Shown: positions 26,327 to 46,237, counted from the first letter of the stretch. The stretch is DNA of 64,000 bases from Promethearchaeota archaeon (GCA_048940445.1 JBHLON010000014.1:1-64000), one strand, 5' to 3'. The notes: generated by a model from the letters alone, not told the origin. Translations and numbers: made by a program.

Positions 26327-26380
26327 AAGCAGATTAATGGAGAGAAATACCAAGTGAGGGTTGAAATTTTTAAATAATAA

Positions 26381-26468
26381 TATAGAACAAGGAGGAAAAA
26401 GATTAGAATAATGGCTTCTCGAATGACCACATCCAAACCGCTATTCCTCCATTCTTTTTTTTTTTTTT
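26381..26468 (+). terminator. Conserved GGAGGA/TCCTCC hairpin plus poly-T
   Basis: tatagaacaaGGAGGA...ttCCTCCattct then a long T run. Confidence 0.6.
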
Positions 26469-26603
26469 AAAATATTCTTTTTAATTTTTGCTTCTTTTTA
26501 GATTCTGATAAAATTATATCTTAAATCTGATTATCATAGACAGAAAAGTTTAAAAATAGAATCAACCAATCTTCAAGTTATACATAAATGTGAATTCTAT
26601 TAA

Positions 26604-28313
26604 ATGATTAAAATGATAGAAAAAGCTTCTTCTAAAAAAAGATTTCCTAATATCAAAGAATTCAAGAAAATAATCATAGTTGGAGGGTCAATAATAAGCT
26701 TAGCGATAGTTGGGATTATAAGTGGAATTATTATTATGGGAGAGATCCCGCAAGGAGGTATTCTTAAAGTAGGTATAACTAAACCTATTGGAGAAATTGA
26801 CCCTCTTATGTATAGCTTTTCTTCAGAAGAAATAGTAATTAATCATGTTACCGAGACGTTATTTGATAATATTTATATAGGTGGTAAATCTCAAACTCTT
26901 CCTCATCTAGCATTAGATGGAAATTGGAGTTCGGACTACCTAAATTTCACATGCACACTTAGAAAGAATGTCATGTTCCATGACGGAACGCCATTTAATG
27001 CTGCAGCTGTTAAATGGAACTTCGATAGAATTACTCAAATTATCGATTCATCACTTCTATCTTGGTATTTGTGGGGTTACCTATTTTTTTTACCAGATGG
27101 GCGCTGGATTGTAAATAAAACTCTAGTCTTAGATTCCCATATTGTAAAATTTGTTTTAAATGATGTTTTTGTACCTTTTCGAGAATTATTAACTCATAGT
27201 ACTACAAGTATTTTATCACCATCATCAACCCCTGCGGATAAACCCCTAAATACACACATTGATAATTTAGTTGGAACCGGTCCTTTTATATATGATGGTT
27301 ATGAACCTAATGTCAATATGTCATTATCTCCTAATCAGGATTACTGGGGAACAAAACCTGAAATTGATAAGGTAATTTTAAAGTTTTATTCTCCAACTAA
27401 TGATACTAATCGTATTAACATTTTATGGAATGCGCTTTTAGCAGGAGAAATTCATATAGTAGACCGGGACTTTATTAAATTTTTAATAAGGTTCTATCCA
27501 GAAAGATCTATCGAACTCCTTAAAGGTGTTGCAGGAATTACAGTTCAACAAAAGCCTACTATAAGCTATTTTTATGTTTTTTTTTATCCTAAACTTATTA
27601 ATAGTACAATGAGAAAGGCAATATCTTATGCAATTAACTATTCTAATATCCTTGAAATAGTTCCTAACTCTATAACAGCCAGATCCCCAATTCCAGAAGG
27701 TATCCCTTACTCTAACATTACTGGTATTGACATTCCTTATTATAACATTTCAAAAGCAAGACAAATGTTAATTGACGAAGGTTGGCCTGGAACAGCGGGT
27801 TTAACGGCAAATGACAATATTACAGCAGGAAACGAATGGGAACAATTAGTAACTAATGGATTCCCTCTTGCTATATATAATTTATCTTATTATCCAGGGA
27901 ATCCATACAATGAATTACCACCAATTCCTTTTCCAGAAAATCTTAAACAACTTGGAGTCAATGTATCATGTCAACCAATTTGGAGTGGTGCTCCGTCTCA
28001 ACTTGAAACATTAATGTGGATGTATGACTATAACGATCCACACACTGGTATGCTTGATTATCATTCAAAATGGACTTTATGGACCGACTTTAATGTTAGT
28101 GTATTAGATGAATTGATAGAAGAAGGAATTAAGGAGACAAATCCTGTTTTAAGAGAAGCGATATACTATAATATTCAAAAACTTATAATCGAGGAAATTT
28201 GTCCTGTTATATTTACTCTCTCTCCACGAAATTTAGATATATATGCATCAAATTTAATAGGTTGGCAAATTTATCCATTCAAAATAGTATTTAAAACAGT
28301 TTATTTCGTCTAA
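26604..28313 (+). CDS. Family-5 solute-binding protein, copy 3
   Basis: FHDGTPFNAAAVKWNFDR, GTGPF, RKAISYA, LTANDNITAGNEWE. Confidence 0.9.
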   Translation: MIKMIEKASSKKRFPNIKEFKKIIIVGGSIISLAIVGIISGIIIMGEIPQGGILKVGITKPIGEIDPLMYSFSSEEIVINHVTETLFDNIYIGGKSQTLPHLALDGNWSSDYLNFTCTLRKNVMFHDGTPFNAAAVKWNFDRITQIIDSSLLSWYLWGYLFFLPDGRWIVNKTLVLDSHIVKFVLNDVFVPFRELLTHSTTSILSPSSTPADKPLNTHIDNLVGTGPFIYDGYEPNVNMSLSPNQDYWGTKPEIDKVILKFYSPTNDTNRINILWNALLAGEIHIVDRDFIKFLIRFYPERSIELLKGVAGITVQQKPTISYFYVFFYPKLINSTMRKAISYAINYSNILEIVPNSITARSPIPEGIPYSNITGIDIPYYNISKARQMLIDEGWPGTAGLTANDNITAGNEWEQLVTNGFPLAIYNLSYYPGNPYNELPPIPFPENLKQLGVNVSCQPIWSGAPSQLETLMWMYDYNDPHTGMLDYHSKWTLWTDFNVSVLDELIEEGIKETNPVLREAIYYNIQKLIIEEICPVIFTLSPRNLDIYASNLIGWQIYPFKIVFKTVYFV

Positions 28314-28374
28314 TATATGCCATGCACATTGGTCTAAAAAACCATAAACAAATTAAAAAATTTTTAACATGATT

Positions 28375-29427
28375 TTATTCAAATAATGAGGGTATACTTG
28401 TCAGATCCATGTCAAAATCTCCCTCTAGGATTTCAAACCTGATATTGTAATAGTACTTAACAATGTTTGCTAGTAAATCATCTGATGTAAAATAAAAAAT
28501 GCCCTCATATGTAGTTTGTGCAATACGATTGAAATCAAAACCATCTACAAGCGTACATATGAGACCAGGAACCTGCAATAAACAAGTAGGAAATCCACTT
28601 TTATCCATGAATTCTCCTCCGTAGGGAATTTCAAGCATTGCACCAATATCAGCGCTGTTATCCTTATAGTAAATAAAAATATCTCCTTTATTAACTTTGA
28701 ATATCCCTGTTGTGTTAGCACCAATATCTCTATATTGAAAAACTTCAATGTCTATATTACCCTCTCTAGTGTTTATGTCCCAACTACTATTTTGAGCATA
28801 TTGCACATCATTTGACTTGAAAATCAAATTTCCATTATTTATAGTTCCAATTATGTTTCCTTGAATTGAACAGTGCTCAAAATTGTACAAAATATTTCCA
28901 TTGGAGACGTTTGTTAATAAATCTCTAAAGGAAACGCCATAAGGAATAGTTATTTCAAAGTTTCCTTTAGTTAGATTGGTAATAATATCAAATACAATAT
29001 CTTTTCTAATATTTACAACAATACTTATTTCTTTCTTTAACCAATATAGTGGATTAAACCAATCATCCGATATAATTTTCAATTTAAGATTTATCTGAGA
29101 ACTTGAGTTGTTCCATGAAATGTTCAAATAATCATCAAATGATTTACCAACTAAGTTTTCTCCAATTAAAGCAATATTTACGTCTATTAATACAAAATAA
29201 TCAACTGGTGGATTAATATATCTTATTTCTATATTACCCTCATCAGCATCAATATATAACTTTTCAATAGATGATGGTGAGCTTGGTTCATATATAAAAG
29301 AACGAGATTCGTTAATATGGTCATACAATGAGGATCTGAATGAAAGTAATTGGATTGGAATAATTATCATAAGAGAACCCCATAAAATAACCAATATAAC
29401 TACTCCAACTATACTTTTTTTCGCCAT
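28375..29427 (-). CDS. Membrane-anchored beta-solenoid protein, partner copy 3
   Basis: YEPSSPS, PV.YF..IDVNI...G..L.GKS..DY, IPYGVS, GNI repeats. Confidence 0.65.
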   Translation of the reverse strand: MAKKSIVGVVILVILWGSLMIIIPIQLLSFRSSLYDHINESRSFIYEPSSPSSIEKLYIDADEGNIEIRYINPPVDYFVLIDVNIALIGENLVGKSFDDYLNISWNNSSSQINLKLKIISDDWFNPLYWLKKEISIVVNIRKDIVFDIITNLTKGNFEITIPYGVSFRDLLTNVSNGNILYNFEHCSIQGNIIGTINNGNLIFKSNDVQYAQNSSWDINTREGNIDIEVFQYRDIGANTTGIFKVNKGDIFIYYKDNSADIGAMLEIPYGGEFMDKSGFPTCLLQVPGLICTLVDGFDFNRIAQTTYEGIFYFTSDDLLANIVKYYYNIRFEILEGDFDMDLTSIPSLFE

Positions 29428-29523
29428 CTTTGATTCTATTGATTATCAACTATAAAAGATCTACAATCATTTAGATAAGATAAGGGTTTATTTAAATTGA
29501 TTCTTCTTTGGCAAAATCCAAAA

Positions 29524-29548
29524 TTCGAACTTTGCGCGAAGTTTCAAA
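29524..29548. promoter_or_regulatory. Palindromic operator copy
   Basis: TTCGAACTTT-GCGCG-AAGTTTCAAA then gtcaaatctaaaaat. Confidence 0.75.
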
Positions 29549-29617
29549 GTCAAATCTAAAAATAAGATTTTAGACCAAATATCAATCACAGCAATTTAAA
29601 AAAAAAGTGAAATCTAA

Positions 29618-30415
29618 ATGAACAGAAAATATAGAGGACTTTTATCAATAACATGTTTAGCAATTTTTGGGATTTTAATCATGGGCGCTATACCAGCAGT
29701 ACAGGGAGCCTCTTCGATCAAAAGACCACTTGATGATTGGTTTTATGATGTCTTTGGTTACGATCTCAATCCCAACGTTGGTGGGTGGGTTGACGGATAT
29801 CAAGTAAGACCTCAAGGCATAGATTATAATATGACCACTGATGAGTGGATCTATCAACCGATTTGGGAATGTACATATGATGGCTTTATCCTTGATAGAG
29901 ACATGCATGATGGTCGACATATGATTACAGTTAATATAAACGTCAAAAATGCTCCAGTTATCGTTGCTCCACCTTTTGGGAGTGGAGGATATTATTGGGT
30001 TTTCCAAGGTTTTATGGATTATAAATATCAATATAATTTCATAATAGACATAGAGGTTTGGGCTGGCTGGCTGATAATGTTGGGCTTTGATGATGATGGC
30101 TTCGACGAATATGGAAATATCCTGTTACCTAGATGGGACCTACCCATGGTTTATGGCTCAGTCTTCGGATTTGAATTCATATCAGTGCATTTTCATGGTG
30201 ATGGAGAAGGAACAATAGTTAACTATTGGGATGAGTCCTGGGTGGGAAATGGAGATCGTATTTGGGAACCAGGTGAATCAGCAAAATTGAGTACTAATAT
30301 GGTTGGACTTGTAAAGGATGATTTCAAACTAGATCATCCCAATTATTGGCCCTCAGAGTATTCTGGATTGCCTTGGAGTGTATTATGGGCAGTTGACTTC
30401 GTAAAATTACATTAA
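29618..30415 (+). CDS. Secreted hypothetical protein (paralog of 25556-26326)
   Basis: Signal peptide; KRPLDDW, INVKNAP, KDDFKLDHPNY, WAVDFV. Confidence 0.8.
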   Translation: MNRKYRGLLSITCLAIFGILIMGAIPAVQGASSIKRPLDDWFYDVFGYDLNPNVGGWVDGYQVRPQGIDYNMTTDEWIYQPIWECTYDGFILDRDMHDGRHMITVNINVKNAPVIVAPPFGSGGYYWVFQGFMDYKYQYNFIIDIEVWAGWLIMLGFDDDGFDEYGNILLPRWDLPMVYGSVFGFEFISVHFHGDGEGTIVNYWDESWVGNGDRIWEPGESAKLSTNMVGLVKDDFKLDHPNYWPSEYSGLPWSVLWAVDFVKLH

Positions 30416-31127: not shown

Positions 31128-32078
31128 TTAAATATTGAATCCATCGTCAAAGTCATCAAACTCATCCCCATCGATCTCAACGTCAAATCTCTCTACTTCC
31201 TGTTCTTTAAGCTTTTTCTTAAGTTCTCTTCGTTCTTTGTGAGTTTGATCATAGCGCTTAATATAGATTTTTTCATACTTCTCTCGTAATTTTTCTACAC
31301 TTTCAACCTGTCCAATTTTATCTTGTAATCCATCTTCAAAAAACCAATTCCTTTTAAATTCTTTTGCAGGAATCCCAACATAAATATAATCATCTCTTAG
31401 CACTTGACCTACTGTTGTGACCGAATTAGCCGCTAGTACACTTCGTTTTCCAATATGAGTTCCTGGCATTACTATTGCATGTGAACCGATTCTAACATCA
31501 TCTTCAATGATAGTTTTGCGAATAATTAGTAAATTGCCTATAATAACGCTGGATTGGATTATAGCTCCTTGACCTACAACGCAATTCTTTCCGAATTCAA
31601 TAAACTCTGTATCCACCCAACCTTCGAATAACGAGTTGGAAAATTTAGTTCGAACTCCAAAAACCTTAAAGCAAATATTATCCAAAAAGGGGAATGGAAA
31701 TTTATGAGCTAACCAAAAAGGAAATCTTTTTATTGTGCTTCTTAAACTCCAGTATCGATAATCCTTATCAGATGGATGTCGTAAAAAAGTTCCTTCTCGT
31801 GGTTTATGAATAGCATTTACTATTACAAGAATTATTTTTGCAAAAAGAATAGCAGAAAATACTGCAGTAACGTACATCACAAAAAATAAGAGTGGTAAAA
31901 AAGTATAGAAATGAATTGGCCTTACATAATCCCACAACCATTGCCAATATGCCCAAAATTCAAGCAATAATGGGAGAATAGTAGCCCAAATTATTATAAT
32001 ATAAAAACTTAAATATCGTTTCTTTACTAAAACCGTCGGTAAAAACGGCCCAACTCGCATTGTATTCGGAACTGACAT
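31128..32078 (-). CDS. Membrane plus left-handed beta-helix module, type C (Pls/PosA terminal-repeat-like)
   Basis: 2 TM, HKPREG.F, YRYW, hexapeptide repeats, YVGIPA. Confidence 0.75.
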   Translation of the reverse strand: MSVPNTMRVGPFLPTVLVKKRYLSFYIIIIWATILPLLLEFWAYWQWLWDYVRPIHFYTFLPLLFFVMYVTAVFSAILFAKIILVIVNAIHKPREGTFLRHPSDKDYRYWSLRSTIKRFPFWLAHKFPFPFLDNICFKVFGVRTKFSNSLFEGWVDTEFIEFGKNCVVGQGAIIQSSVIIGNLLIIRKTIIEDDVRIGSHAIVMPGTHIGKRSVLAANSVTTVGQVLRDDYIYVGIPAKEFKRNWFFEDGLQDKIGQVESVEKLREKYEKIYIKRYDQTHKERRELKKKLKEQEVERFDVEIDGDEFDDFDDGFNI

Positions 32079-32094
32079 CTCTTCTCAATCCTTT

Positions 32095-33969
32095 TTAATT
32101 ATCCTTTGTTTTTACTAATTTAAGTTTATCCTTATCAATATTTACATCGTGCTCTACTTCAAACTTTTCAGAATCATCTACTTCTCTCTTTATTATTATA
32201 TCCCTTCGCTCCTCAGCATATTTATTCTCTTTCAACTTAATTGCGGGAATACCAAAATAAACCCACGTAGGTTCAAGAATTTGATTCATTGTAGTACTTG
32301 AAATAGCACCTATAACAGAATCATGTCCCATGATTGTTCCTGGAGCGATAGTGGTATGTCCACCAACTAACACATAGTTATCAAAAATCACTTGCTTTAT
32401 AATTAAATACTTTCCAACTACCATGGAGGACATAATTGTGGCTCCTTGACCTATCAAATTTTTCCTTCCAAAAGTGATAAATTCACCATCACACCAAGCA
32501 TCATTGAGATGGCTTGAAAAATCCATCTTCGTACCAAACCATTTAAATGCTAACGCATCTATCCAAGGGAGCGGAGAATTTCTTAAGAACCACAAAGCAA
32601 CTTTCTTCAATTCTGTGCGTAACATCCAAAACTCGTAATCTGTATTACCAACCTTAGCTAAAAATGTACCCTCTTTTGGTTTATGGATTAAATTTACCAG
32701 AATCAATAATAATTTGCTAAATAATAAAGCACCAAGAATAAAAATATATAACATTGATATAATCGCTATAGGAAGGAAAAAAATTGAGCCTGGATGAAGT
32801 CCTTCCTTAGAGTATTCATACCAATATAAACATATAAACAAACCACTCAACCAGAATATTGGTAAGTATACTGCTAAAAACTTAATATTAATTCTACTAA
32901 TTGCACTACTTGTTGTAAAATCCAAAGCAAGATCTTCATGTGTTAAATTATCTACATTAACTTGCTCAAAATCGGCTATATTACTTTCTTCCACATCTTC
33001 TAAATCCTCTTCTTCATTGAAATCCTCTACTTTTGAAACTGAATTTATTATGATTTCTTTTTCCTCTTCACTTTTCTTTATAAATTCTTCTGGATTCTCA
33101 TTTTTTTCTAAGTCTTCTTCAGTTAATCTTAACCAACTCATAGTCTTTTTTCTAAAAATCTTTCTAAGAGGAATTCCGAAATAATAGTTATTATTTCCTT
33201 TAAGAACACTATGTGCACTTGTTGATGATAATGGAAGTAAATAAGCATCGCTATGAATCTCAGATCCTGGACCAATCTGGTTCATAGCAGCAAGAGTAAC
33301 GTTATCTCCCACATTAATTTTGAAATAATTAATATTACCAAATATTCCAGTCAATAAATGAGATGCTAAAGTTGAGTTAACTCCGATGTAAGCGTTTTTG
33401 CCAACATCTATAAATTTATCAGATCCTACTGACTCTTCTATTGTACTTCCCTTTCCAACCTTAGAATCAATTTGTCTAAGGAACCAATTATAAAGCCAAG
33501 GAAATGCTCCTTTATTAAAAACATTCTTACCATATTTAAGCATAAAACTTCTTAAATGATAATAATTTGCAGTCTTACTTTTAATATTTCTGGGAATTAT
33601 ACCATTTTTTGATGAAGAAATTTTCTCAGTAATTGCCCAAAAAATCCTTGTAATGATTCCAATTAAGAATAATCTAACTAAATAACAGATAATTATAACC
33701 AATGGCATACATAATAAAGATATTAAAGGTTCTAATTTAATAAATAAAAAAACAAAATTGGTTGTCTCTAAAAAATTTGGAAGTAAAACGAAAATCACAT
33801 AAGAAAAGAATATGAAACCAGGAACCAACCAAGAACCATAATAAATAATAAAAAAGATGGAAATATACCAATGAAATTGAAGGCTCACCTCTTCCTTAAC
33901 TACTTCTTCTTCATTATTTTTATCTGAATCTTCATTCTTTCTTGAATCTTCAGACATTTTCTTCATCAA
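32095..33969 (-). CDS. Fused type A+B membrane/LbH modules
   Basis: Two TM+hexapeptide units separated by an acidic linker; each ends YFGIP. Confidence 0.75.
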   Translation of the reverse strand: MMKKMSEDSRKNEDSDKNNEEEVVKEEVSLQFHWYISIFFIIYYGSWLVPGFIFFSYVIFVLLPNFLETTNFVFLFIKLEPLISLLCMPLVIIICYLVRLFLIGIITRIFWAITEKISSSKNGIIPRNIKSKTANYYHLRSFMLKYGKNVFNKGAFPWLYNWFLRQIDSKVGKGSTIEESVGSDKFIDVGKNAYIGVNSTLASHLLTGIFGNINYFKINVGDNVTLAAMNQIGPGSEIHSDAYLLPLSSTSAHSVLKGNNNYYFGIPLRKIFRKKTMSWLRLTEEDLEKNENPEEFIKKSEEEKEIIINSVSKVEDFNEEEDLEDVEESNIADFEQVNVDNLTHEDLALDFTTSSAISRINIKFLAVYLPIFWLSGLFICLYWYEYSKEGLHPGSIFFLPIAIISMLYIFILGALLFSKLLLILVNLIHKPKEGTFLAKVGNTDYEFWMLRTELKKVALWFLRNSPLPWIDALAFKWFGTKMDFSSHLNDAWCDGEFITFGRKNLIGQGATIMSSMVVGKYLIIKQVIFDNYVLVGGHTTIAPGTIMGHDSVIGAISSTTMNQILEPTWVYFGIPAIKLKENKYAEERRDIIIKREVDDSEKFEVEHDVNIDKDKLKLVKTKDN

Positions 33970-34125
33970 ATATAGGTTTGAAAAATATAAATAAATTGGT
34001 AAGTAATTTTTACTTAAAATTACTACTCTATATTAATTGTAGTTATTTTTTGTATCTTTTAAAGTTAAGTTATTAATATTTTCATGATTTTTTTTGACTC
34101 TTAATAAATTTTATTTACGATAATT

Positions 34126-34521
34126 ATGAAAAGCGCGAAGAAAATATGTAAAAATTGTGGAATGTGCTGTCAGAGGACAGAAATGTTGGTATCAGAACTA
34201 GATATTCAATTAATAGCACAAACTTTGAATTTGACTAGAAATGATTTTATAATAATAAATGAATTCGATATCCCTCAATTAAAGAATAAAGATAATCACT
34301 GTGTCTTCTTAGATTATACATCTAAGTTTTGTACTATATATAAAATTAGACCAAAAGGCTGTAGATTTTATCCATTAGTTTATGATAAAGATAAGAGCAA
34401 ATGTATTTATGATTCAGATTGCCCAAGAGTTAAGAATTTTTATTTAGAGAAAGTTGATTTTCAGGAAGTATGTAATAATCTTAAAAATTTTATCAAATCT
34501 GAATTAAAAATCAAATTATAA
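34126..34521 (+). CDS. YkgJ-family cysteine-cluster protein
   Basis: CKNCGMCC ... C.FL ... C.IY..RP.GCRFYP. Confidence 0.9.
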   Translation: MKSAKKICKNCGMCCQRTEMLVSELDIQLIAQTLNLTRNDFIIINEFDIPQLKNKDNHCVFLDYTSKFCTIYKIRPKGCRFYPLVYDKDKSKCIYDSDCPRVKNFYLEKVDFQEVCNNLKNFIKSELKIKL

Positions 34522-35518
34522 AAACTGTTTTAATGTGATCTCTACTTCTTTGATACGAATTAAATGCTTCAGAAAATTTTTCTAATGGAAATTCTTTTGA
34601 AATTAGTTCATTAACCTTAATTTTTCCTGACTTTAATCCTTCTATTGCTTTATCAAATGGACCACATCGACTAGTATATAGGGTGAGCTCTCGTACAACC
34701 ATATCCGTTAAATTCAGTTTTGTTCCTAATCCATGTGTACTTTTTACATGTATTTTTCCACGAGTTCTACAAGATGCAATAACATTTGAAATTGCATTTG
34801 GATTACCAGTGGCATCTAGAGTTATATCAGCTCCTAAATCGTCTGTAAACTTTTTGATTTGATTTGGGATATCATTATTTTTTAAACGGTTTATCAGAAA
34901 TTTAGCCCCGAACTTTTTTGCTAATTCGAGTTTCTTATTAGACCCATCTATTGCAATTACCTCAAGACCATTCAAAATTGCAACCTGAATAATTAACAAA
35001 CCCAATTTCCCAGCCCCGAAAATGGCAATAGTTTTATCATCATCACCTATAGGCATTGTCTCAAAAGTCTGGTAAGCTGCAGCTAAAGGTTCTATGAATG
35101 ATGCTTCTTTAAAAGAAATATCCGCTGGGATTTCATGTAATAAATAAGAATCAACTGCAATATAATTTGCAAATGCGCCATCTATATCAATTCCTATAGC
35201 TTTTCGAGATATGCATTGAGTGAATAGATTTTGTTGACAAAAATAACAATTAAAGTCAATATTAGCATTGATTTCAGAAGTAACACGTTTCCCCAACCAT
35301 TTTCGATTTACCTTTTTACCTAATTCTATAACTACGCCCGCAAATTCATGTCCTAAAACAATTGGTATAGGTGTAGTTAAATCTCCTCTTAAAATTGCTA
35401 AATCTGTTCCGCATATTCCTGCAGTTTTTATCTCTATTAAAGCTTGATTATCATCAATTTTCGGCGTTTCAATATCTTTTATTATCAACTCTTTTCCATC
35501 AAATAATACGGCTTTCAT
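34511..35518 (-). CDS. Zn-dependent alcohol dehydrogenase (MDR family)
   Basis: GICGTD, GHEFAG, C..C...C, EPLA, GAGKLG. Confidence 0.9.
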   Translation of the reverse strand: MKAVLFDGKELIIKDIETPKIDDNQALIEIKTAGICGTDLAILRGDLTTPIPIVLGHEFAGVVIELGKKVNRKWLGKRVTSEINANIDFNCYFCQQNLFTQCISRKAIGIDIDGAFANYIAVDSYLLHEIPADISFKEASFIEPLAAAYQTFETMPIGDDDKTIAIFGAGKLGLLIIQVAILNGLEVIAIDGSNKKLELAKKFGAKFLINRLKNNDIPNQIKKFTDDLGADITLDATGNPNAISNVIASCRTRGKIHVKSTHGLGTKLNLTDMVVRELTLYTSRCGPFDKAIEGLKSGKIKVNELISKEFPLEKFSEAFNSYQRSRDHIKTVFII

Positions 35519-35626
35519 AATTTATTGAGTAGTTTTAATATTATAAATATAAAATGATAAATTCTCAAATTAATGTTAAGTTTTGAATAATGCTTATTTA
35601 TGTATAATAAAGATTATGTACTTTAA

Positions 35627-36217
35627 TTGGCCTTATTTTGGTGTATTAGAATTCTAATAAAAATTTTAAATTGTGATTATATGCAAAAATCAATATTGAT
35701 ATGGGAAATCATTGGTATGGTCTTTATTACTTTATTAGGATCTTTGATGCATTTTGCATTTGAATTATCAGGCTATTTTCTACCAGTTGGAGCAGTTGCT
35801 GCGGTAAATGAGAGTGTATGGGAACATTTGAAGCTAGGATTTTGGCCATTAATTTTATTTGCATTAATTGAGTATGGTTTCATTAGAAAGAAGACAGAGA
35901 ATTTTGTAATTGCTAAGGGAGTTGCTGCTTTCGTTATACCGATTGTTATTGTTGTGTTCTTTTATAGCTACACGGCTATTCTAGGTACTGACTCTCTATT
36001 CTTGGACATATTTAGCTTTATCTTGGCTATAGTAATTGCTCAGTTAATTAGTTATAAAGTTTTAACTTTACCCAAAATCTCAAAAATTTATGCGATTATT
36101 TCTTTAATGTTAGTCATTACACTTGGAATCTTATTTGTCGTATTTACTTACTATCCGCCTCACTTTTTTCTTTTTGAGGATCCAATAACAAGTTCCTATG
36201 GAATTGTAATTCACTAA
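35627..36217 (+). CDS. Integral membrane protein (DUF6512-like); likely start ATG 35681
   Basis: LMHF, VNESVWEHLKL, FTYYPP. Confidence 0.65.
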   Translation: MALFWCIRILIKILNCDYMQKSILIWEIIGMVFITLLGSLMHFAFELSGYFLPVGAVAAVNESVWEHLKLGFWPLILFALIEYGFIRKKTENFVIAKGVAAFVIPIVIVVFFYSYTAILGTDSLFLDIFSFILAIVIAQLISYKVLTLPKISKIYAIISLMLVITLGILFVVFTYYPPHFFLFEDPITSSYGIVIH

Positions 36218-36300
36218 TAGTGAAATCTAAATTCAAATCAATTTACTTTTTTAATTCTTTTTCATATATAATTATCTGAACTATTCTTAATTTTAGTATA

Positions 36301-37935
36301 ATGCCCCAATTTGACTTTGATATAGAGATTCAAAAGTATTTTAATAATTTTTATGCAGATATAGACCGTGTCAATTGGGAAAAATGGTTGGACATATCAA
36401 GTAGTGAAGAATATCTAGAGCTAGCGCTAAAGTTATCAGGCTTGTCTTCTATTGATGGTCTTTTTGATAGGCTTAACACTGAAACAACCGAGTCAAAAAA
36501 GATTTCTTTGAATTTAAGTGCCTTCCTCAGTAGCTATGGTAATTCTAGCATTCCAATATTATGTCATACTTCTGGAACGACTAATAATAAAATTTCAGCA
36601 TTAAAATGGTTTCATATGTCTAAAGCTATAGTTAAGAGAAATTGGGCTCCTGGTATGCAAGCTATTTTTGAATCAAGTGGCTTAAACAGAAATTCATCAG
36701 CTGTAATATTCGTTCCCTCAAGGATTAAATTTGATGGCCTTAAAACTTTTGAAGGTCAAAGATACATTTCATTATATTCATCTGAGTTTTCCCAGAGAGT
36801 AATGCTTTCAATAATTAAACCAAAAGCATTTTCTTTTTATGAGTATAAGAATTCAAAGAATCTGGACGTCATAGCCAAGATTTTAAGTTTAGAAGGAATA
36901 GCTGTTATTTCTGCTCCAGCATTAACTATCTTGGGATGGGCAGATTTAGAAAAATTACAAACAGGTATAAAAAATTCGTTAGAAAACTTACCAAAAGAAA
37001 AAAATTCAATTCTTGAAAAATTTTTATCTATTATCGAAAGGAAAGGCATAGAAAAAGCTTCTGAGATTATACAAAATAAACTCTCCGAAAAATTATCTGA
37101 AGCAACCCTTATATTTAGTATAAGTTCTCTTTCTGAACAGAATTGGTCTTTGATACGTAAATTTATGAAATGGAAAAAGGGGAATGAGCGATTTACGAAT
37201 CTTTATGTAGCATCAGAAATTGGTCCATTTGCAGCTAGTATTTCAAAAGGAGATTTTAAACTTTCGCATTTAAACAGAATGTATGTTTTTCCTCTTACTA
37301 TACCTATATTAGAATATAAAAACAAGAGAAGATTAATCTCTGAAGTGTCAAATCAAATAGGTAAACTTTTTATTTCAAGAATGGGTAATAAAAAAGCCTT
37401 AATTAATATCAATGTAGGAGATATAATAACTGCTATGAATTCAGAAGGGTTGCCTCAGATAGATGGGAAAATTATTAGATCAAGCTTTCAATTAAATTAT
37501 AAGTTAAAGTTATCTAAAAAAGTTGAAGTTCCTTATAAGCATGAGATTTTAGCCGGGGATTATTTTTCCTTAAATGAATTAATCATCAACCAACCTAGAA
37601 ATTTAGTAAATTGTCTGAAACTTAACTGTAACTTGCAAACTGATGCCTTATTGCTTATAAAAAGAGAAAGCAATTCTTGGGAATTGGTTCTCCCTTTAGA
37701 TTTGAAATCAAGCTGTGTAAATGCAACAGAAGTATTAGAGACTATATTGAAATGCCCAACTCAAGCAGATCTTTATCAGGCAATTAGAAATAAGTCAATT
37801 AATTTAAAATTTATAGAAGATTTACCTGTTGATTTTCTAGCAACCCGAGAAGCTATATTAAAAAAAGTAAGAGAGGGGCAAATACCTAAAGGTATTTTAA
37901 AGAAGTGGCCTTTATATGTGATTTCACCTTGTTAA
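36301..37935 (+). CDS. GH3/ANL-like adenylate-forming enzyme
   Basis: HTSGTT P-loop-like motif, YVASE, NVGDII...I.R. Confidence 0.6.
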   Translation: MPQFDFDIEIQKYFNNFYADIDRVNWEKWLDISSSEEYLELALKLSGLSSIDGLFDRLNTETTESKKISLNLSAFLSSYGNSSIPILCHTSGTTNNKISALKWFHMSKAIVKRNWAPGMQAIFESSGLNRNSSAVIFVPSRIKFDGLKTFEGQRYISLYSSEFSQRVMLSIIKPKAFSFYEYKNSKNLDVIAKILSLEGIAVISAPALTILGWADLEKLQTGIKNSLENLPKEKNSILEKFLSIIERKGIEKASEIIQNKLSEKLSEATLIFSISSLSEQNWSLIRKFMKWKKGNERFTNLYVASEIGPFAASISKGDFKLSHLNRMYVFPLTIPILEYKNKRRLISEVSNQIGKLFISRMGNKKALININVGDIITAMNSEGLPQIDGKIIRSSFQLNYKLKLSKKVEVPYKHEILAGDYFSLNELIINQPRNLVNCLKLNCNLQTDALLLIKRESNSWELVLPLDLKSSCVNATEVLETILKCPTQADLYQAIRNKSINLKFIEDLPVDFLATREAILKKVREGQIPKGILKKWPLYVISPC

Positions 37936-38021
37936 ACAAAAATAAAACTAATAAGTTATAAAAAGACACTATAAATTCCTTATTGATTTTAATTATACAT
38001 AACAATAAATTGGTTTTTAAA

Positions 38022-38495
38022 ATGAAAGATAAATTCAATTTCGTTGGTACAAAGATTAATGAATTCGAATTATCAAATTCTCGAGGAGAAAACAAAAATA
38101 TACGAGATTTACAAGGACAGAATGTGGTACTTGTATTATTTAGAAGTAAAAATTGACCTTATTCTAAAGCTCATGCCCAGAAACTTAGTAAAGACTATGA
38201 AAAGTTCAAAGATTTTAATGCAGTACTTTTTACTATTTTACCCGATGATTTTAAGAGCGCAAAGATATTCGAAGAAAATTTCGCGAAAAATGCATTTCCA
38301 ATATTCTATGATAATAAAAAGAAGGTAAATAAAATGTTAAAACAAGAAGTTAAACCTTTAAAACTGGGACGGATGCCAGCCCTTCTTATTATAGATAAAG
38401 AAGGAATTATTAGATATGCATACTATAGTGATTCTATGTCCGATATCCCCGAGAATGAAGTTGTATTTGAAGTACTTAAAAATCTTAATAAATAA
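38022..38495 (+). CDS. AhpC/TSA peroxiredoxin-like protein with in-frame TGA (probable selenocysteine, codon 45)
   Basis: ...VVLVLFRSKN-TGA(38154-38156)-PYSK... continues in frame to PALLIIDKEGIIRYAY...DIPENE and TAA at 38493-38495; 157 aa. Confidence 0.8.
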
Positions 38496-38639
38496 TATGA
38501 TTTGGTATGAATAAAATATAAAAAATTGTTGAATTTTATTCTTAGAAGTTAGCCATACTTTACCAAATCAAAATCCTTTTACTAAATAACTGCATTTTGA
38601 AATTTGTTCACCAAGAATTATTATAAATTTGAAATAGTC

Positions 38640-39035
38640 TTACTTCTCGACCTTCCATCTTTTAACTTTTTTGACAGGATTCGGTAATCGACTTTTTAAC
38701 CACTTTGTAGCATCATCGGGAGTAAAACTCTTAGATTTTGATTCAATTAACCAAGATAAAAATTCATCAGGACCTCCATTCATATATGGAGGTGGAGAAA
38801 CAGGCATGAAAACAGTGGGTAATGTTTCCTCTAATGATAAACAATTTAGTACATGTCCCAACTCTTGGACAACATTCCAAGCTAATGGATGTTCTATATC
38901 TATTCTAAATTTTACCCACCACAAACCATTTTCAATACCATTACTTATTGATCCAGTTATTGAAGGAACTTCCTTAAGAAAGTGAAGTAAATTATCAAAA
39001 GATTGATTAATCATAATAAATCTAAGAATTACCAT
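38640..39035 (-). CDS. Conserved hypothetical protein
   Basis: Protein-like composition; WWVKF.IDI.HPLAW.VVQELGHVLN...PVSPPPY.NGGP motif. Confidence 0.7.
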   Translation of the reverse strand: MVILRFIMINQSFDNLLHFLKEVPSITGSISNGIENGLWWVKFRIDIEHPLAWNVVQELGHVLNCLSLEETLPTVFMPVSPPPYMNGGPDEFLSWLIESKSKSFTPDDATKWLKSRLPNPVKKVKRWKVEK

Positions 39036-39038
39036 ATC

Positions 39039-39911
39039 TTATATATTTTTTAGGTGTTTAGAAATAGTTTTATCTTTTCTCCTGGTATAAAGCTCATCAT
39101 ATTTTCTTCCCAATTCTCCCATCTTTTCAATATCATGCTTTTGGTTTGCGATTATCTCTTCTAATCCATCTTCAAAGAACAAATCTTTTTTATATTTTCT
39201 CGCAGGCGCACCAAGATATATCCAACCTTCTTCTAATTCTTGCCCAACTGTTGTAAGAGAACTAGCAGCTAATACAGCATTCTTATGAATATGGGTTCCT
39301 GGCATAACAACGGAATGGACTCCAATCCTAACATTATCTTCAATTATAGTCTTTCTAATAATCAATAAGTTTCCAATTATAATTGACGATTGAATAATAC
39401 TAGCTTGACCACAGACTACGTTTTTTCCAAATTCTATAAATTCTGTATCACACCATGCTTCAAAAAGGGAATTCGAAAACTTAGTTTTAACTGAAAAAAG
39501 CTTAAAACAGAGATTATCTAAGAAGGGAAGGGGAAATTTATGGGCTACCCAGATTGGCCATCTCTTAATAGTATTTCGAACACTCCAATAGCGATAATCT
39601 CGATCTTTTATCTCTCTCAGAAATGTACCTTCCCGAGGCTTATGCAGAAGATTAGCGCAAATAAGCAAAAATTTAGCAATTAAGAGTGACGAAAAAGCTA
39701 AAGAGACATATATAACAAAAATTAAAAGTGGAAGAAAGATAAGAAAGTGTACAAAATGATAATAATATAAAAAGTTCCAATACCACCAAAATTCAAACTG
39801 AATCACAAAAAAACTAAACCAAATTTCAAAAATGTATAGGATTAAGTATTTTTTCTTAACCAATACAAGACTTGTATGAGGTCCTACCCGAAAATTTGCT
39901 GGTACAGACAT
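39039..39911 (-). CDS. Membrane/LbH module type C, second copy
   Basis: Close paralog of 31128-32078 (MSVP..RVGP, KTKFSNSLFE, GNLLIIRKTIIED). Confidence 0.75.
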   Translation of the reverse strand: MSVPANFRVGPHTSLVLVKKKYLILYIFEIWFSFFVIQFEFWWYWNFLYYYHFVHFLIFLPLLIFVIYVSLAFSSLLIAKFLLICANLLHKPREGTFLREIKDRDYRYWSVRNTIKRWPIWVAHKFPLPFLDNLCFKLFSVKTKFSNSLFEAWCDTEFIEFGKNVVCGQASIIQSSIIIGNLLIIRKTIIEDNVRIGVHSVVMPGTHIHKNAVLAASSLTTVGQELEEGWIYLGAPARKYKKDLFFEDGLEEIIANQKHDIEKMGELGRKYDELYTRRKDKTISKHLKNI

Positions 39912-40804
39912 TATTTTTCCTTATCGTGATTATAATTATTATTTAATAAATCTTTTTTATCAGCATCTATATTCACTTCATGATCGACTTCGTAACGGGT
40001 TTCTTCTTCAACATCCTTTTTAAAGATTATATCACGTCTTTGCTGGGCATACTTGTTTGGTTTAAATTTCATTGCTGGCAAACCAAGATAGATCCAACCA
40101 GGTTCTAAAAATTGGTTATAATTTATGTTAGAAAAAGCACTGCTTACAGATTCTTCTCCTAAAATAGCTCCAGGAGAAACATTAGAAACGCCTCCAACTA
40201 CAATGTAATCCTCAAAAATTACCTTCTTTATAATTAGATACTTACCTACTACCATAGAACTCATAATTACAGCGCCTTGACCAATCGTTATCCTTCTCCC
40301 AAATTTTATAAAATCTGTGTCTACCCATGCATCTTGTAGGTGACTGGAAAAGTCTATGCGGACACCAAACCATCTAAAGCCCCACATCACTATCCAAGGC
40401 AAAGGATTATTAGTCATCAACCATAAGGCTAACTTTTTCAATTCGATCCGCAAACGCCAAAATTCAAAATCAGTATTCCCAGATTCTGCTCTAAATACAC
40501 CCTCTTTCGGTTTATGTATCATATTAACGATTAATAGAACTGCTTTTGAAAAGATTGCTATGCCAAAAATGAAAATAAAATATAATATGAAAAGCCAAAA
40601 TGGTAAAAGCAACATAGTGATGATCCAATTGTTTATGTATCGAGAAATATCAAAAAACACGGTAATTGCCATATAGCCACTGATCCAAAGAATTGGAATG
40701 TATAAGATAAGGAATTTAAGACTAATTCTACTTATTGCGCTACTTGTAATAAAATCGATCGTATAATCTACTTTATCATTTGCTAGTGAGTTAGATTCAT
40801 TCAT
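39911..40804 (-). CDS. Membrane/LbH module type B, stand-alone
   Basis: DF.TSSAISRI..KFL, HKPKEG, MSSMVVGKYLII; start taken at ATG 40804 after GAGGAG rather than the TTG at 40867. Confidence 0.75.
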   Translation of the reverse strand: MNESNSLANDKVDYTIDFITSSAISRISLKFLILYIPILWISGYMAITVFFDISRYINNWIITMLLLPFWLFILYFIFIFGIAIFSKAVLLIVNMIHKPKEGVFRAESGNTDFEFWRLRIELKKLALWLMTNNPLPWIVMWGFRWFGVRIDFSSHLQDAWVDTDFIKFGRRITIGQGAVIMSSMVVGKYLIIKKVIFEDYIVVGGVSNVSPGAILGEESVSSAFSNINYNQFLEPGWIYLGLPAMKFKPNKYAQQRRDIIFKKDVEEETRYEVDHEVNIDADKKDLLNNNYNHDKEK

Positions 40805-40814
40805 ATAGCTAATT

Positions 40815-41696
40815 TTACTCCTCTTTTTTTTCCTCTTTATTACTTTTGAGCGATTCTGCTCTCTCAAAATCCGTTTCAGAGATATCTAAATAATCTATTA
40901 CTTTTTTCTTAAAAATACGACGCAAAGGAGCTCCAAAATAGTAATTATCACCTTTTAAAATATTAAATTTTGTGGCACCACTCATAGGTAACAGCCACGA
41001 ATTATCATTTACCTCAGAACCAGGTCCTATACAATTGAATGCACCCGCAGTTACATTATTACCAATTTTTACTCTGAAAAAAGAAATATTTCCAAAGATA
41101 CCTTCTACGGCATGTGAACTTATCGCACCTCCAACCCCAAAGTAACAATTTTTACCAATAGTTACAAACCTATCAGCGCCTACATTCTCTTCGAGAGTGG
41201 TTCCTTTTCCTATAATATTGGTTCCAATAAAATTATAAAGCCAAGTGATTAGCCAAGGAAAGGGTCCTCTTACTATGGAATTTTTTGGATATTTTATGAC
41301 AAAACTTCGGATGTGATAATAATTTACTGTTTTACTGGGAATGTTTCTAGGGATAATTCCATCCTTTGAAGGAGAATTTTTCTCAGTTATCCTCCAAATG
41401 CCTCGCGTAATTAAAGCCATAAAAAACACATGAACTAAATAACATAATATGATTATCAAGGGCATAAAAATTGAAGCTAAGAGCGGTTCAAATCGGGTAA
41501 AGAGTAAAAAGAAATTTGGTTCTTGCAAGAAATATGGTAAATAAAATAACATGATGTATAACATAAAAATAATTGCTGGAATAAGGAATGACCCAAAATA
41601 AATTATGAAAAATAACGTCATATACCAATGAAATTGTAAATTAATTTCTTCTTTGACAATTCCTTTCGTAGATTCGTTTTGTTCGGTACTTTCCAT
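40815..41696 (-). CDS. Membrane/LbH module type A, stand-alone
   Basis: LQFHWY, GIIPRNI.SKT.NYYH.RSF, EGIFGNI, YFGAPLR. Confidence 0.75.
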   Translation of the reverse strand: MESTEQNESTKGIVKEEINLQFHWYMTLFFIIYFGSFLIPAIIFMLYIMLFYLPYFLQEPNFFLLFTRFEPLLASIFMPLIIILCYLVHVFFMALITRGIWRITEKNSPSKDGIIPRNIPSKTVNYYHIRSFVIKYPKNSIVRGPFPWLITWLYNFIGTNIIGKGTTLEENVGADRFVTIGKNCYFGVGGAISSHAVEGIFGNISFFRVKIGNNVTAGAFNCIGPGSEVNDNSWLLPMSGATKFNILKGDNYYFGAPLRRIFKKKVIDYLDISETDFERAESLKSNKEEKKEE

Positions 41697-42001
41697 CTCT
41701 TAACTCATGTAAATTTTTTTAAAAGTCATCTTAGAAATAAATATATGAATCTTATTATGAGCTCTTTGACTATTTATTACGATTTAATTTAAAAATTTCT
41801 ACACTTTTGCTTTTAGGAATAATATATTAAAAAAAAATAAAAGTCTTGAGATTATAGATTATTAATTTAAAAAGTTAAGTTCGGTTCTAAGAAAATCCTT
41901 ATAAGCAAGAGTCGCTCAAATATTTACATATAAAGAAAACAATGCGGTTTCCATTTTTTTTAATATAATATATAAGATTAAAGATAAAAGAAGAAATAAA
42001 A

Positions 42002-43336
42002 ATGCGTGATTCTAACTTAATGATAGATAAGATTCGAGGAGAACATAAAAAAGGATTGCCGTCCAAAAGAAAAATCTTATCCTATTTACTCGATTTACTT
42101 AATAAAGATAAATATCCATCGCTCTCTGATATTGAATATTACAATATTGTTGGAGAGACTTACAAATTAAATCTCGATTACAAATTAAATCTTCAAATGT
42201 TATTTTATCCAGTGTATCATGCTTTGAAGAAGAAAATAAAGAAACTATATGGCAATGAAAAAAGCCTAGAAATGGAAAAATATCTTATTAAAAACTTTGG
42301 CTTGTTTGGGGCAAAGGATGTCCTTCTTCCTCTTAAGAAGAAAATTTTTAATCCAAGAACACCTATTTATGAAATTTTAAGATCTTTATATGATTTACGG
42401 ACTGAGGAAGAATTTCTGCAACTCGCTGATGTAGAATTTTTTGATATTATTGGAGAAACTTTTAAAACAAATTCTGATCTTTTTATGAACGAGCTTTATC
42501 AACCTTTCAGGAAAAGAATGAAAGAAATTATTGGTGCTGAAAAATTAAAGGAAATGGAAAGATACATTATTGAAAAATTTTGTTTATATGAGCAAGAACA
42601 AATCATTTATGAATGCACAGGAGATATTAAACAAATGCAAGTATTAGTACAGAAACCATCGGGTAAGTACAAAATGGATTCTTTCCCACTTCGTATCTCA
42701 TTAAAAAAAGGAGTCATTTTTTTTACGAATTATAGAATAATTGCTCAAGGTAAGCTTAATGTACGTGGTGGTCAAAGTACGACTTTATGGTTATGGGCTC
42801 CATCGCTGAGTGTTTTTTCAGGGGGATCTACCCGAGCTGAAAGCAAACAAGCACTTATTAATAGTTCGATAGATCAACAATTACCTTGCTATGGATATCA
42901 ATTTCCAATTAAAAACCATACTGGATTAAGTAAGAGTAGTAGAAGAATAGCCTATGTTGTCACGATTGAGAATCATAAATCTATAATTTCTATAACGCCT
43001 TATCCTTTTAATGGAGAAGAAATCTTACATATTTTTGATATTTTACGTAAAGATGTAACGGAAATTTTAACTCTTATTAACGAAGTATATGAAATTGAAG
43101 TATTAGAAAAAAATAAGTTAAGAAGCATATTATCTGTTTTAAAAGCATTACGCATAAATGAAGAATATCAACATCTATCTGATTCAGATTATTTAGATAT
43201 TGTAAAAGAGACTTATAAATTAGAACCCGATTTTTTTATGACTTTAATTTACCCAAAAATGATGTCTTGGGAATTTCCCTCGTTCTTAAGTGTGAGAGAG
43301 CACATAAGTTCACTAATTGAAAATTTAAGAACGTGA
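42002..43336 (+). CDS. Hypothetical protein with three short helical repeats and a possible PH-like domain
   Basis: L.D.E...I.GET.K repeated three times; IFFTNYRII. Confidence 0.6.
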   Translation: MRDSNLMIDKIRGEHKKGLPSKRKILSYLLDLLNKDKYPSLSDIEYYNIVGETYKLNLDYKLNLQMLFYPVYHALKKKIKKLYGNEKSLEMEKYLIKNFGLFGAKDVLLPLKKKIFNPRTPIYEILRSLYDLRTEEEFLQLADVEFFDIIGETFKTNSDLFMNELYQPFRKRMKEIIGAEKLKEMERYIIEKFCLYEQEQIIYECTGDIKQMQVLVQKPSGKYKMDSFPLRISLKKGVIFFTNYRIIAQGKLNVRGGQSTTLWLWAPSLSVFSGGSTRAESKQALINSSIDQQLPCYGYQFPIKNHTGLSKSSRRIAYVVTIENHKSIISITPYPFNGEEILHIFDILRKDVTEILTLINEVYEIEVLEKNKLRSILSVLKALRINEEYQHLSDSDYLDIVKETYKLEPDFFMTLIYPKMMSWEFPSFLSVREHISSLIENLRT

Positions 43337-43476
43337 GCTCCTGTAGAAATTAGTAATAATAAGTAAACTAGTTCCTTTCTTTTATGCTATATATTCTTCA
43401 TTTTCCCGTGTGGATTTTAGGAATAACACATTTTAAAAAAAAAGGTGAAAGAGTATATTTTATTAACTATTTTGAA

Positions 43477-44322
43477 TTAATCTCTAGCTTTTTCTTTTTT
43501 AGGAAACCATGGTATAAATGAACTAGTTCTTTTTTTGTATTCTACATACTCTTCATTTCCAGCGAATCTCTTATTTAGTAATCTCACCCCAGAAACTTTT
43601 ATTATTTGAAAAGTAATGTATAAGGGACCTATAAATGTAATAAATCCAAATGGAACAGCTAATGCGATTACAAAAAAACTCCACCATTGAGTGACTTCTC
43701 CAAAATAATTTGGGTGCTGCGAATACTTCCATACACTTTTAGTCATAATCTTACCCTTATTAGTTGGATTTTGAAGAAATTTATAAAGAGAATAATCCGC
43801 TATAGTTTCAAACAGAAAACCAATTAACCATATTACAGATCCCAACCATAAAGTTATACCTCCAAAATCTATTAAACTAACAACACAAGGATTCTCACTT
43901 ATATTTACAAACCAAACCGGAAAACAGACAAGAAATACAATAATGCCTTGAAATAAATAAATTTTAAAAAAACTCTTTAATGCAATATTTTTTTTCCAAC
44001 GTTCTCGCATCGCCTTATATCGATAATCTTCTGGTTTTCCCCTATTTCTTATAAACACGTAAGTTGCTAATCTAACTGCCCAAATCAATACTAAAAGTGA
44101 GATTATAACTTGACGAATGCAATAAGTTGAGGTAAATACTAAATTTAGTATAAAACTTGTCATTGCTACTACAAAATACGTTGGACCATAAAATATGTCC
44201 ATTATAGCATTATTTTTTTTAATTGTTCCAACAATAAAAGCAATGAAGATATAAATAAAGAGTGTTAAAGCCGAATAACCAATTATTGTTAACATTATTT
44301 CAATGGTGGACATGGGAAACAC
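43477..44322 (-). CDS. DUF1295 / steroid 5-alpha-reductase-like membrane protein
   Basis: W..RL, EDYRY, FETIAD, W.YS.HPNYFGE..WW, Y..RTS.FIPW. Confidence 0.9.
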   Translation of the reverse strand: MFPMSTIEIMLTIIGYSALTLFIYIFIAFIVGTIKKNNAIMDIFYGPTYFVVAMTSFILNLVFTSTYCIRQVIISLLVLIWAVRLATYVFIRNRGKPEDYRYKAMRERWKKNIALKSFFKIYLFQGIIVFLVCFPVWFVNISENPCVVSLIDFGGITLWLGSVIWLIGFLFETIADYSLYKFLQNPTNKGKIMTKSVWKYSQHPNYFGEVTQWWSFFVIALAVPFGFITFIGPLYITFQIIKVSGVRLLNKRFAGNEEYVEYKKRTSSFIPWFPKKEKARD

Positions 44323-44419
44323 AATTAGATTCTAAAATATTGAAAGATGATTACTTGGAAAATACTAAATTATTTATACTTTATATCTATTAAATAAAGA
44401 TTTTAATAAGTTTCGAAGA

Positions 44420-46237
44420 TTAGAGCTTCTCTTTTTTATCTTCTTCAATATTTACCTCATGTTCAACATGAAACTTTACTTCTTTATCCACATCTCTCTT
44501 GACAATGATATCACGCCTAGATTCAGCATATTTATTTGGCTTTAGCTTAATTACTGGTATTCCTATATAAATATATCCTGGTTCTAAAACCTGGTTAAAT
44601 GTTGTAATAGATACGGCAGCAACAACCGTATCTTTTCCAACGATTGTACCAGGAGCAATAGTTGTATGACCTCCTACTAAAGCATAATCATCAAGAATTA
44701 TCCTAGAAATTATCAAATATTTTCCAACAACCATAGAACTCATCAGATTTGCACCTTGACCTATCATTACTTTCCTCCCAAAATAAATAAATTCGCCATC
44801 ACACCATGCATCATACAAGTAACTTGAATAATCCATTTTCACTCCAAACCACTTAAAAGCCAAAACATCAGTCCATGGTATTGGGCAATTTCGCATTAAC
44901 CATAACACAATCTTCTTCAGTTCTGTACGTAATAACCAAAATTCGTAATCTGTATCTCCTATTTGAGCCAAAAAGATTCCTTCTTTAGGGCGATGGATTA
45001 GATTTACGAGTGTAAGAAACAATTTGCTATATAAAAAACACCCTAAAATGAAAATAAAATAGAGTATAAAAAACAGAGCAGGCAAAAAAAATACAAAGAG
45101 AATCAAATTAGTTACAAATGCAGTATACGTATAAAAAAGAATCGCAACTTGTAATCCGCTGATCCAGAAGATAGGTAGATATACTGCCAAAAATTTGATA
45201 TTAATTCTGCTAATTGCGGAACTCGTAGTAAAATCTATCGTTAAATCTATCTCTTCTTTTAGAGAATTATCTATCTTTTCTTTTTTCAATAAACTATTAG
45301 AGTTAATGTCAGTTTTAGTAGATTTTTTATCCTTCTTTTTCTTTTTGGGTTCTTTAGCTACCAAATCTTCTATAGGAATCTTATTCTTTTCCAATTCTTC
45401 TGGTGTTAGATCTAGATATCGCATAACCTTTTTATCAAATATGCGTCTTAGAGGAATTCCGAAGTAATAATTACGGTTTCCTTTTAGAACACTGTGTTTA
45501 GTTGCTGAGGCTAGAGGTAATAGATAGGAATTATCTTTTATTTCCGTTCCAGGACCAATTTGATTGATTCCTGCTGAGGTAACGTTGTTACCGACTTCAA
45601 TTTGAAAGTAAGCGATGTTTCCAAAAATGCCCTCCACTAAATGGGTTGCTAATGTTGAACCAACAGCAAAGTAGCAATTTTCTCCTACAGTTGCGAACTT
45701 ATCATTTCCAACAGATTCTTCAAGTGTGCTTCCCTTACCGATAACCATTGAACCTACAAAATTGAATAACCAATTAGAAAGCCAAGGGACTAATCCCTTA
45801 ACAAATAAATTTTTAGGGTATTTTATGAGAAAAGATCGAAGATGATAGTATTTTTCTGTTTTACTTTTAATATTACGTGGAATAATACCACTTTTGGTAG
45901 GTGACTTTTTTTCAGTATACCTCCATAATGAACGTGTGATTATTGCAACAAAAAGTAGTCTGATAAGATAGCAAATGATTAATACTATTGGCATTGAAAG
46001 GAAGGCGATTAATGGTTTCATTTCTGTAAAAAGACTAATAAAATTCGAAGTCTCTAAAAAGTTTGGTAGAAAATATAGAAAAACATAAAGCATAAAAAGA
46101 GAAATAGGGACTAGAAATGACACTAAATATATTGTTAGCAAAATAATAATTGAAGATAAATATTGAACACTAAGTTCTTCCCTCTGTACAGGTGGTTTTA
46201 AAAGTTTAGATACTTTTAATTCTGGTTTCGATTCCAT
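44420..46237 (-). CDS. Fused type A+B membrane/LbH modules, second copy
   Basis: Paralog of 32095-33969 with a basic linker. Confidence 0.75.
   Translation of the reverse strand: MESKPELKVSKLLKPPVQREELSVQYLSSIIILLTIYLVSFLVPISLFMLYVFLYFLPNFLETSNFISLFTEMKPLIAFLSMPIVLIICYLIRLLFVAIITRSLWRYTEKKSPTKSGIIPRNIKSKTEKYYHLRSFLIKYPKNLFVKGLVPWLSNWLFNFVGSMVIGKGSTLEESVGNDKFATVGENCYFAVGSTLATHLVEGIFGNIAYFQIEVGNNVTSAGINQIGPGTEIKDNSYLLPLASATKHSVLKGNRNYYFGIPLRRIFDKKVMRYLDLTPEELEKNKIPIEDLVAKEPKKKKKDKKSTKTDINSNSLLKKEKIDNSLKEEIDLTIDFTTSSAISRINIKFLAVYLPIFWISGLQVAILFYTYTAFVTNLILFVFFLPALFFILYFIFILGCFLYSKLFLTLVNLIHRPKEGIFLAQIGDTDYEFWLLRTELKKIVLWLMRNCPIPWTDVLAFKWFGVKMDYSSYLYDAWCDGEFIYFGRKVMIGQGANLMSSMVVGKYLIISRIILDDYALVGGHTTIAPGTIVGKDTVVAAVSITTFNQVLEPGYIYIGIPVIKLKPNKYAESRRDIIVKRDVDKEVKFHVEHEVNIEEDKKEKL

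Follow-up and report, generated by a model that had tools for sequence, protein, structure and literature searches.

A membrane-anchored left-handed beta-helix system with Pls-like architecture and one histidine-bearing class of module in a Loki-type Asgard archaeon

In a Loki-type Asgard archaeon, assigned to Promethearchaeota by the names of the closest homologues, six genes encode three related membrane-anchored subunits, A, B, and C; all six lie on the minus strand of the 64,000-nt stretch of DNA analysed here (GCA_048940445.1, JBHLON010000014.1:1-64000; hereafter the window). We regard this ABC system as a left-handed beta-helix (LbH) acyltransferase that has a Pls-like architecture and stands outside the Pls family. 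Its three repeats, each consisting of a transmembrane (TM) hairpin and an LbH domain, are predicted by modeling to form one pseudo-trimer, and the alignments indicate that among the three classes only A carries a likely catalytic histidine. A literature search on Asgard hexapeptide acyltransferases found no paper describing the ABC system.

The window contains eight modules, arranged as AB1+C1, A2+B2+C2, and a lone AB3, on proteins of 290–624 aa. All-against-all BLASTP separated them into three classes, with 51–66% identity within a class, 34–40% between B and C, and 19–27% between A and either B or C. The open reading frames and these classes bear out an earlier note on this DNA, which had described three sequence classes in the arrangements AB+C, A+B+C, and AB, with fusion and fission in one locus. 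AB1 (32095–33969, minus strand, about 620 aa) fuses a putatively catalytic A module (His codon 33360–33358) to a B module that has Ser instead of His (codon 32427–32425). After a gap of 16 nt follows C1 (31128–32078, minus), a putative scaffold module with Ser in the same place (codon 31550–31548) and the predicted partner of AB1. The second set consists of free modules: A2 (40815–41696, minus), putatively catalytic with His195 (codon 41114–41112); B2 (39911–40804, minus, or to 40867 with an upstream TTG start), located 10 nt downstream, a putative scaffold with an MSSM motif and without His; and C2 (39039–39911, minus), likewise a putative scaffold, whose start codon overlaps the B2 stop codon (TAATG). 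AB3 (44420–46237, minus) again fuses A (His codon 45643–45641) to B and has no adjoining C, which is also the case in several relatives; it probably borrows C1 or C2 as a partner. The genome encodes three further modules outside this locus: D+E lie on contig C100, and F lies on contig C101. A promoter and terminator scan, designed for bacterial promoters, fell below the expectation from shuffled sequence.

Each module contains two hydrophobic segments, and the only Pfam matches on the six proteins are to Hexapep (PF00132). An AlphaFold2 model of AB1 (15 sequences) was discarded at a pLDDT of 51, and a model of A2 (112 sequences; pLDDT 92, pTM 0.85) was used instead. It consists of a long helical hairpin (residues 22–57 and 69–107), followed by two helices and a beta-helix. 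The LbH fold is supported by PF00132 as well as by Foldseek and VIA matches, with the A2 model serving for structure. Among solved structures, acetyltransferases of the maltose/galactoside type come closest (Z 13, rmsd 3.0, 147 aligned residues), and these matches cover only residues 105–263, i.e., the soluble part without the TM hairpin. Considering NCBIfam and Pfam together, LbH families alone match the six proteins and no NRPS A or T domain was detected on any chain, as the earlier note had stated.

The candidate catalytic residue lies in the motif SHxVEG. This His (His195 in A2) is invariant in all 35 class A rows of the alignment, and the same column holds Ser in 20 of 20 class B rows and Ser or Ala in 29 of 29 class C rows. 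In galactoside O-acetyltransferase (1kqa), the residue aligned with A2 His195 is His115, the catalytic base. Class A also aligns at this column with repeat C3 of PosA: in 13 Pls-family sequences the column is His in every C3 (QTH or QAH), in two of the 13 C1 repeats, and in none of the C2 repeats. Since all single-module relatives examined keep the His, it represents the ancestral state, from which B and C have departed by loss. Since only A keeps it, the assembled ring would have one active site. One His per set is not a family-wide rule, because in the paralogous set F-D-E two of the classes carry it.

To model the complex, we combined AB1 with C1 and ran three controls. The AB1+C1 pair reached an ipSAE of 0.83 in three runs, whereas the best of the three controls reached 0.00; the runs share at least 75% of contacts and the partner pLDDT is at least 81. 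The mark applied to this score is reached by 58 of 80 solved pairs and 2 of 110 mismatched pairs. The score supports AB1–C1 binding as a prediction; close cousins can also pass, and solved structures include many LbH trimers, likeness to which may account for the value. Within these bounds the model speaks for the A/B/C heterotrimer proposed earlier. In it, C1 touches both A and B through its membrane helices and its beta-helix, and the hairpins, which hold conserved residues, supply many of the tightest AB–C contacts. In C, the counterpart of the His loop (I179, G181) packs against A at Y188 and T219, and in B the corresponding loop (residues 505–517) packs against C. By symmetry, the His loop of A would face B, which would place the single site at the A/B cleft. 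The ring order of the model is obeyed by all fusions seen (AB, CA, and CAB).

ABC-type modules are present in all 20 family genomes searched, with 2–17 modules per genome, and weaker, mostly single modules occur in several other Asgard families. In 17 relatives viewed by locus, all adjacent triads have the order A-B-C. A full A-B-C run is found in 71 of the 80 GTDB loci carrying class A; of the nine incomplete loci, six stop at the edge of the contig or flank, and none of the 80 shows adjacent modules in a different order. The A-B-C order described in the earlier note is conserved in relatives, and because the genomes are kin, the 71 loci show inheritance under constraint rather than 71 independent events.

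Paralogous sets are cut differently: CA+B occurs in six genomes, a single-chain C-A-B protein is represented by P0125 (797 aa) and P0132, and FD+E also exists. The third module of CA+B and of CAB clusters with B with moderate support (85 and 80), and AB, CA, and CAB can thus be read as cuts of one cycle A-B-C-A. In a sister family, A is accompanied by a single B/C gene, and B and C represent a late split. Tandem duplication is limited to A, with AABC or AAABC in 6 of the 80 loci and copies that are 59–82% identical; every tandem A copy retains the His, and neither BB nor CC duplicates were seen in the 80 loci. Together with the lone AB3, this suggests swappable catalytic subunits on shared scaffolds. 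The second triad type, F-D-E, is spread over two contigs of this genome (L001 9106–10701 and L002 9367–10170) and has His in both F and D and none in E; the fused form FD+E is found in L111.

The resemblance of the modules to the repeats in the C-terminal polymerisation domain (TM1–6, C1–C3) of the homopoly(amino acid) synthetases Pls/PosA, among them epsilon-poly-L-lysine synthetase, which had been noticed from segments such as the one starting with PWLYNWF at AB1 residue 157, reflects true homology. TIGR02353 is the best NCBIfam match for four of the six proteins, at 18–58 bits against a cut-off of 423, and scores 54 bits on the single-chain CAB protein P0125; no protein in the whole genome exceeds the cut-off. 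HHalign of modules against Pls repeats gave E-values of 1e-9 to 1e-15, and a Pls/PosA cluster in the Atlas fits the A2 model with a TM-score of 0.68 over 233 residues, TM hairpin included. Both systems share the TM hairpin, a P-x-G motif, two helices, and a beta-helix ending in G-x-P. PosA has been modeled as a pseudo-trimer of six helices and three beta-helices (PMC10522769), i.e., three diverged copies in one assembly, as predicted here for AB+C. Each system consistently keeps one His, located in A in the ABC system and in C3 in Pls. Unlike Pls, the ABC system lacks A and T domains, is encoded by two or three genes (rarely one), and occurs in several copies per genome, and carrier and PPTase genes were mostly not found in the family that carries it.

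The earlier proposal of a dissociated complex is not supported in the sense of a dissociated Pls. A one-to-one equivalence of A/B/C with C1/C2/C3 was rejected, as the HHalign results are inconsistent (B and C both match C1 best, and A is tied between C1 and C3). In the trees, the repeats of Pls fall into a clade by themselves (SH-aLRT 98), and a grouping of A with C3 is rejected (p-AU 0.00013), both values coming from quick trees with long branches and a contrast of GC-rich with AT-rich composition. These comparisons are most simply read as two separate triplications of a single module that carried the His, and at the sequence level they argue that the system is not a split Pls and arose separately. 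Searches found no solved Pls/PosA terminal domain in the PDB by sequence and no report of a Pls cryo-EM structure in the literature.

With moderate confidence, we favor a membrane-embedded 1:1:1 acyl-CoA acyltransferase that uses the His of A as its base and a lipid or lipid-linked molecule as acceptor. A, B, and C would assemble 1:1:1 in the membrane as a pseudo-symmetric LbH trimer over six membrane helices. With the general-base His in A only, each ring would have one active site, most likely at the A/B cleft, and B and C would act as scaffold and substrate-binding subunits. The donor would be free acyl-CoA (acetyl or longer) rather than a carrier-bound thioester, and the acceptor would reside in the membrane, most likely as a lipid head group or lipid-linked glycan whose hydroxyl or amine receives the acyl group. 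Several A paralogues per genome would share B and C and thereby differ in specificity.

A precedent is YvoF. In Bacillus and in the haloarchaeon Haloferax, this heptaprenylglyceryl/archaeol O-acetyltransferase uses acetyl-CoA to acetylate ether lipids at the membrane (PMC9179154), and its activity feeds lipoprotein acetylation (PMC12345273); a similar donor and acceptor may be used here. YvoF likewise combines a helix with a short LbH and has its His at the same position, and its model NF058585 is the top NCBIfam match for A2 and AB3 and the second for AB1. In contrast to the ABC modules, YvoF is a single domain of ~170 aa without a three-class organization, and its 172-position model matches the LbH part only. 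Against a lipid acyltransferase, NF058585 scores 14–52 bits on five of the six proteins and 28 on C2, far below its cut-off of 300. In the tree, the YvoF-like proteins of this genome fall outside the ABC family. The best YvoF score in the genome (79 bits) belongs to a 364-aa membrane protein encoded among glycosyltransferase-like genes on contig C101 (137980–139074, plus).

The acceptor could instead be soluble or a protein, e.g., a sugar, a small metabolite, or a protein amine, with the hairpins serving only assembly and location of a membrane-tethered acyltransferase. We consider this unlikely. In its favor, soluble acetyltransferases of sugars and small molecules come closest among solved structures: the Maa/LacA enzymes are the best matches (Z about 13), and His195 occupies the column of LacA His115. 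These enzymes are soluble homotrimers with three equal sites, whereas the modules described here have a membrane hairpin and a single His class. A distant His-bearing pair sits among glycosyltransferase genes, and the acceptor of Pls is a diffusible amine (PMC9205021). On the other side, the hairpins make many of the tightest AB–C contacts and hold conserved residues, and no sugar-nucleotide or glycosyltransferase genes are found among the annotated neighbours of the window locus.

A split, carrier-free amide or polymer synthetase appears rather improbable. It would depend on a GH3/PaaK/CapK-like adenylate-forming ligase encoded within the locus (36301–37935, plus, 544 aa), which would convert an amino acid or other acid into its adenylate or CoA thioester; ABC would then condense the product on an amine, possibly iteratively, as in Pls. 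The ligase has no sequence match in Pfam, NCBIfam, or the PDB, so that its assignment rests on features and structure in the Atlas (TM-score 0.56–0.58) and on the expected motifs, which are intact (HTSGT, YVxSE, IxxxD, and the C-terminal Lys are conserved). Fold, motifs, and position favor such a synthetase, as does the equal one-His pseudo-trimer of Pls (QTH/QAH in 13 of 13 C3 repeats; model in PMC10522769). In addition, a nitrilase-family amidase follows the triad in 45 of 80 loci, comparable to the degrading enzyme that accompanies pls (PMC8117764). However, the distribution of the ligase does not follow that of ABC. It was found in 14 of 21 family genomes with ABC, lying near the ABC genes in about 10 of these 14 and unlinked in four, and it also occurs in another family without the ABC triad. 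It is always on the opposite strand to ABC and lies within 3.5 kb of A in 8 of 80 loci, fewer than an unrelated ribonucleotide reductase (RNR; 41 of 80). This distribution and orientation rule it out as an obligatory partner. The ligase usually follows a DUF6512 membrane gene (here 35627–36217, plus); in another Asgard family it adjoins a glycoside hydrolase-like gene instead.

Carrier proteins, also looked for across genomes, do not accompany the modules either. Carrier domains (PF00550) were detected in 4 and PPTases (PF01648) in 5 of 26 family genomes, and since they are rare, a carrier-dependent Pls mechanism cannot be general; the split synthetase is likewise disfavored by the lack of carrier proteins in most family genomes. 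In this genome both functions lie within one PKS-like ORF (~3,500 aa) on another contig. This PKS/PfaA-like ORF (contig C1, 3878–14407, plus; 3,509 aa) has three carrier domains and a PPTase match and adjoins acyl-CoA carboxylase and biotin ligase-like genes; the GC content of the contig is 32%, compared to 30% for the genome. Of the complex for acyl transfer or polymer synthesis suggested earlier, the acyl-transfer half is the likelier, and little speaks for the polymer half.

The commonest co-oriented neighbours are the nitrilase-family amidase (45 of 80 loci; 298 bits with NF040852, below its cut-off) and a DUF1295 membrane protein (43 of 80), which in the window is encoded at 43477–44322 (minus) and weakly matches the steroid 5-alpha-reductase family. 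UvdE follows the triad, co-oriented, in 28 of 80 loci. Loci L034 (16859–17659) and L033 (11935–12831) provide examples of amidase and UvdE. Neither the amidase nor UvdE was found in this genome, which for the amidase counts against the split synthetase. DUF1295 is a possible, unproven partner; the co-oriented neighbours define no pathway and may represent inherited synteny.

A non-catalytic membrane scaffold or acyl-CoA sensor, comparable to the LbH subunits of dynactin, eIF2B, and mitochondrial complex I, would agree with the loss of His in two of three classes and with the non-catalytic LbH proteins in the fold-match list, but A strictly retains the His across all triad types and duplicates, as do the single-module relatives, which makes it very improbable. 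Three independent, generic WcaF-type homotrimeric O-acetyltransferases in tandem, which would suit the Hexapep-only Pfam result and the 15–39 bits of PRK10502 (WcaF family, cut-off 192) on five of six proteins, are hardly credible, since the His is absent from B and C, AB, CA, and CAB occur as fusions, 71 of 80 loci conserve the order and the 1:1:1 sets, and AB+C passes the complex test. The WcaF-type model TIGR04008 likewise gives 18 bits against a cut-off of 326, and the comparison of TIGR02353 with the WcaF models places the modules beyond a generic WcaF-type match.

Taking the membrane-embedded acyltransferase as the preferred reading, the presence of ABC in every family genome searched, with 2–17 modules, makes it a likely core part of the poorly known chemistry of the Lokiarchaeal membrane or envelope, and if the acceptor is a lipid, the system bears on the composition of Asgard membranes. 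A further-reaching, doubtful possibility is a combinatorial Lokiarchaeal machine in which interchangeable A subunits on shared B and C either acylate archaeal lipids, giving them esters, or join the ligase in making a carrier-free amide or polymer. If true, no such activity would have been known before from Asgard archaea, and the architecture of Pls would have been invented there independently. The two lineages, each of which turned a single His-bearing module into a pseudo-trimer with one site, would constitute a clean case of convergent symmetry breaking. ABC also provides a compact model, with separable parts, for the polymerase domain of Pls/PosA and points to the QTH His of C3 as a candidate catalytic residue in Pls. 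The role of this His may already be known from mutagenesis; Kito et al. 2013 is reportedly a mutagenesis study of Pls.

Several other features were observed in and around the locus. An uncharacterized 131-aa ORF (38640–39035, minus) follows C2. Between the DUF1295 gene and A2 lies a 444-aa ORF (42002–43336, plus) without a Pfam or NCBIfam match, which is present in 11 of 80 loci; by eye, its N-terminal part resembles its C-terminal part, indicating an internal repeat. At 25556–30415, two paralogous, secreted-looking ORFs (25556–26326 and 29618–30415) lie on either side of a gene resembling ABC-type solute-binding proteins and an uncharacterized 350-aa ORF. Among distant relatives, ADP-forming acyl-CoA synthetase genes often adjoin single modules, as a raw frequency. 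The distant tandem pair of His-bearing single modules mentioned above lies within a glycosyltransferase/methyltransferase cluster (L110, 2085–3499). Finally, two-module fusions with His in both modules occur on a Helarchaeota contig (L107, 723–2267) and on an apparently bacterial contig with genes for phasin, a PlsC-type acyltransferase, and an outer-membrane protein (L109, 6001–7491).
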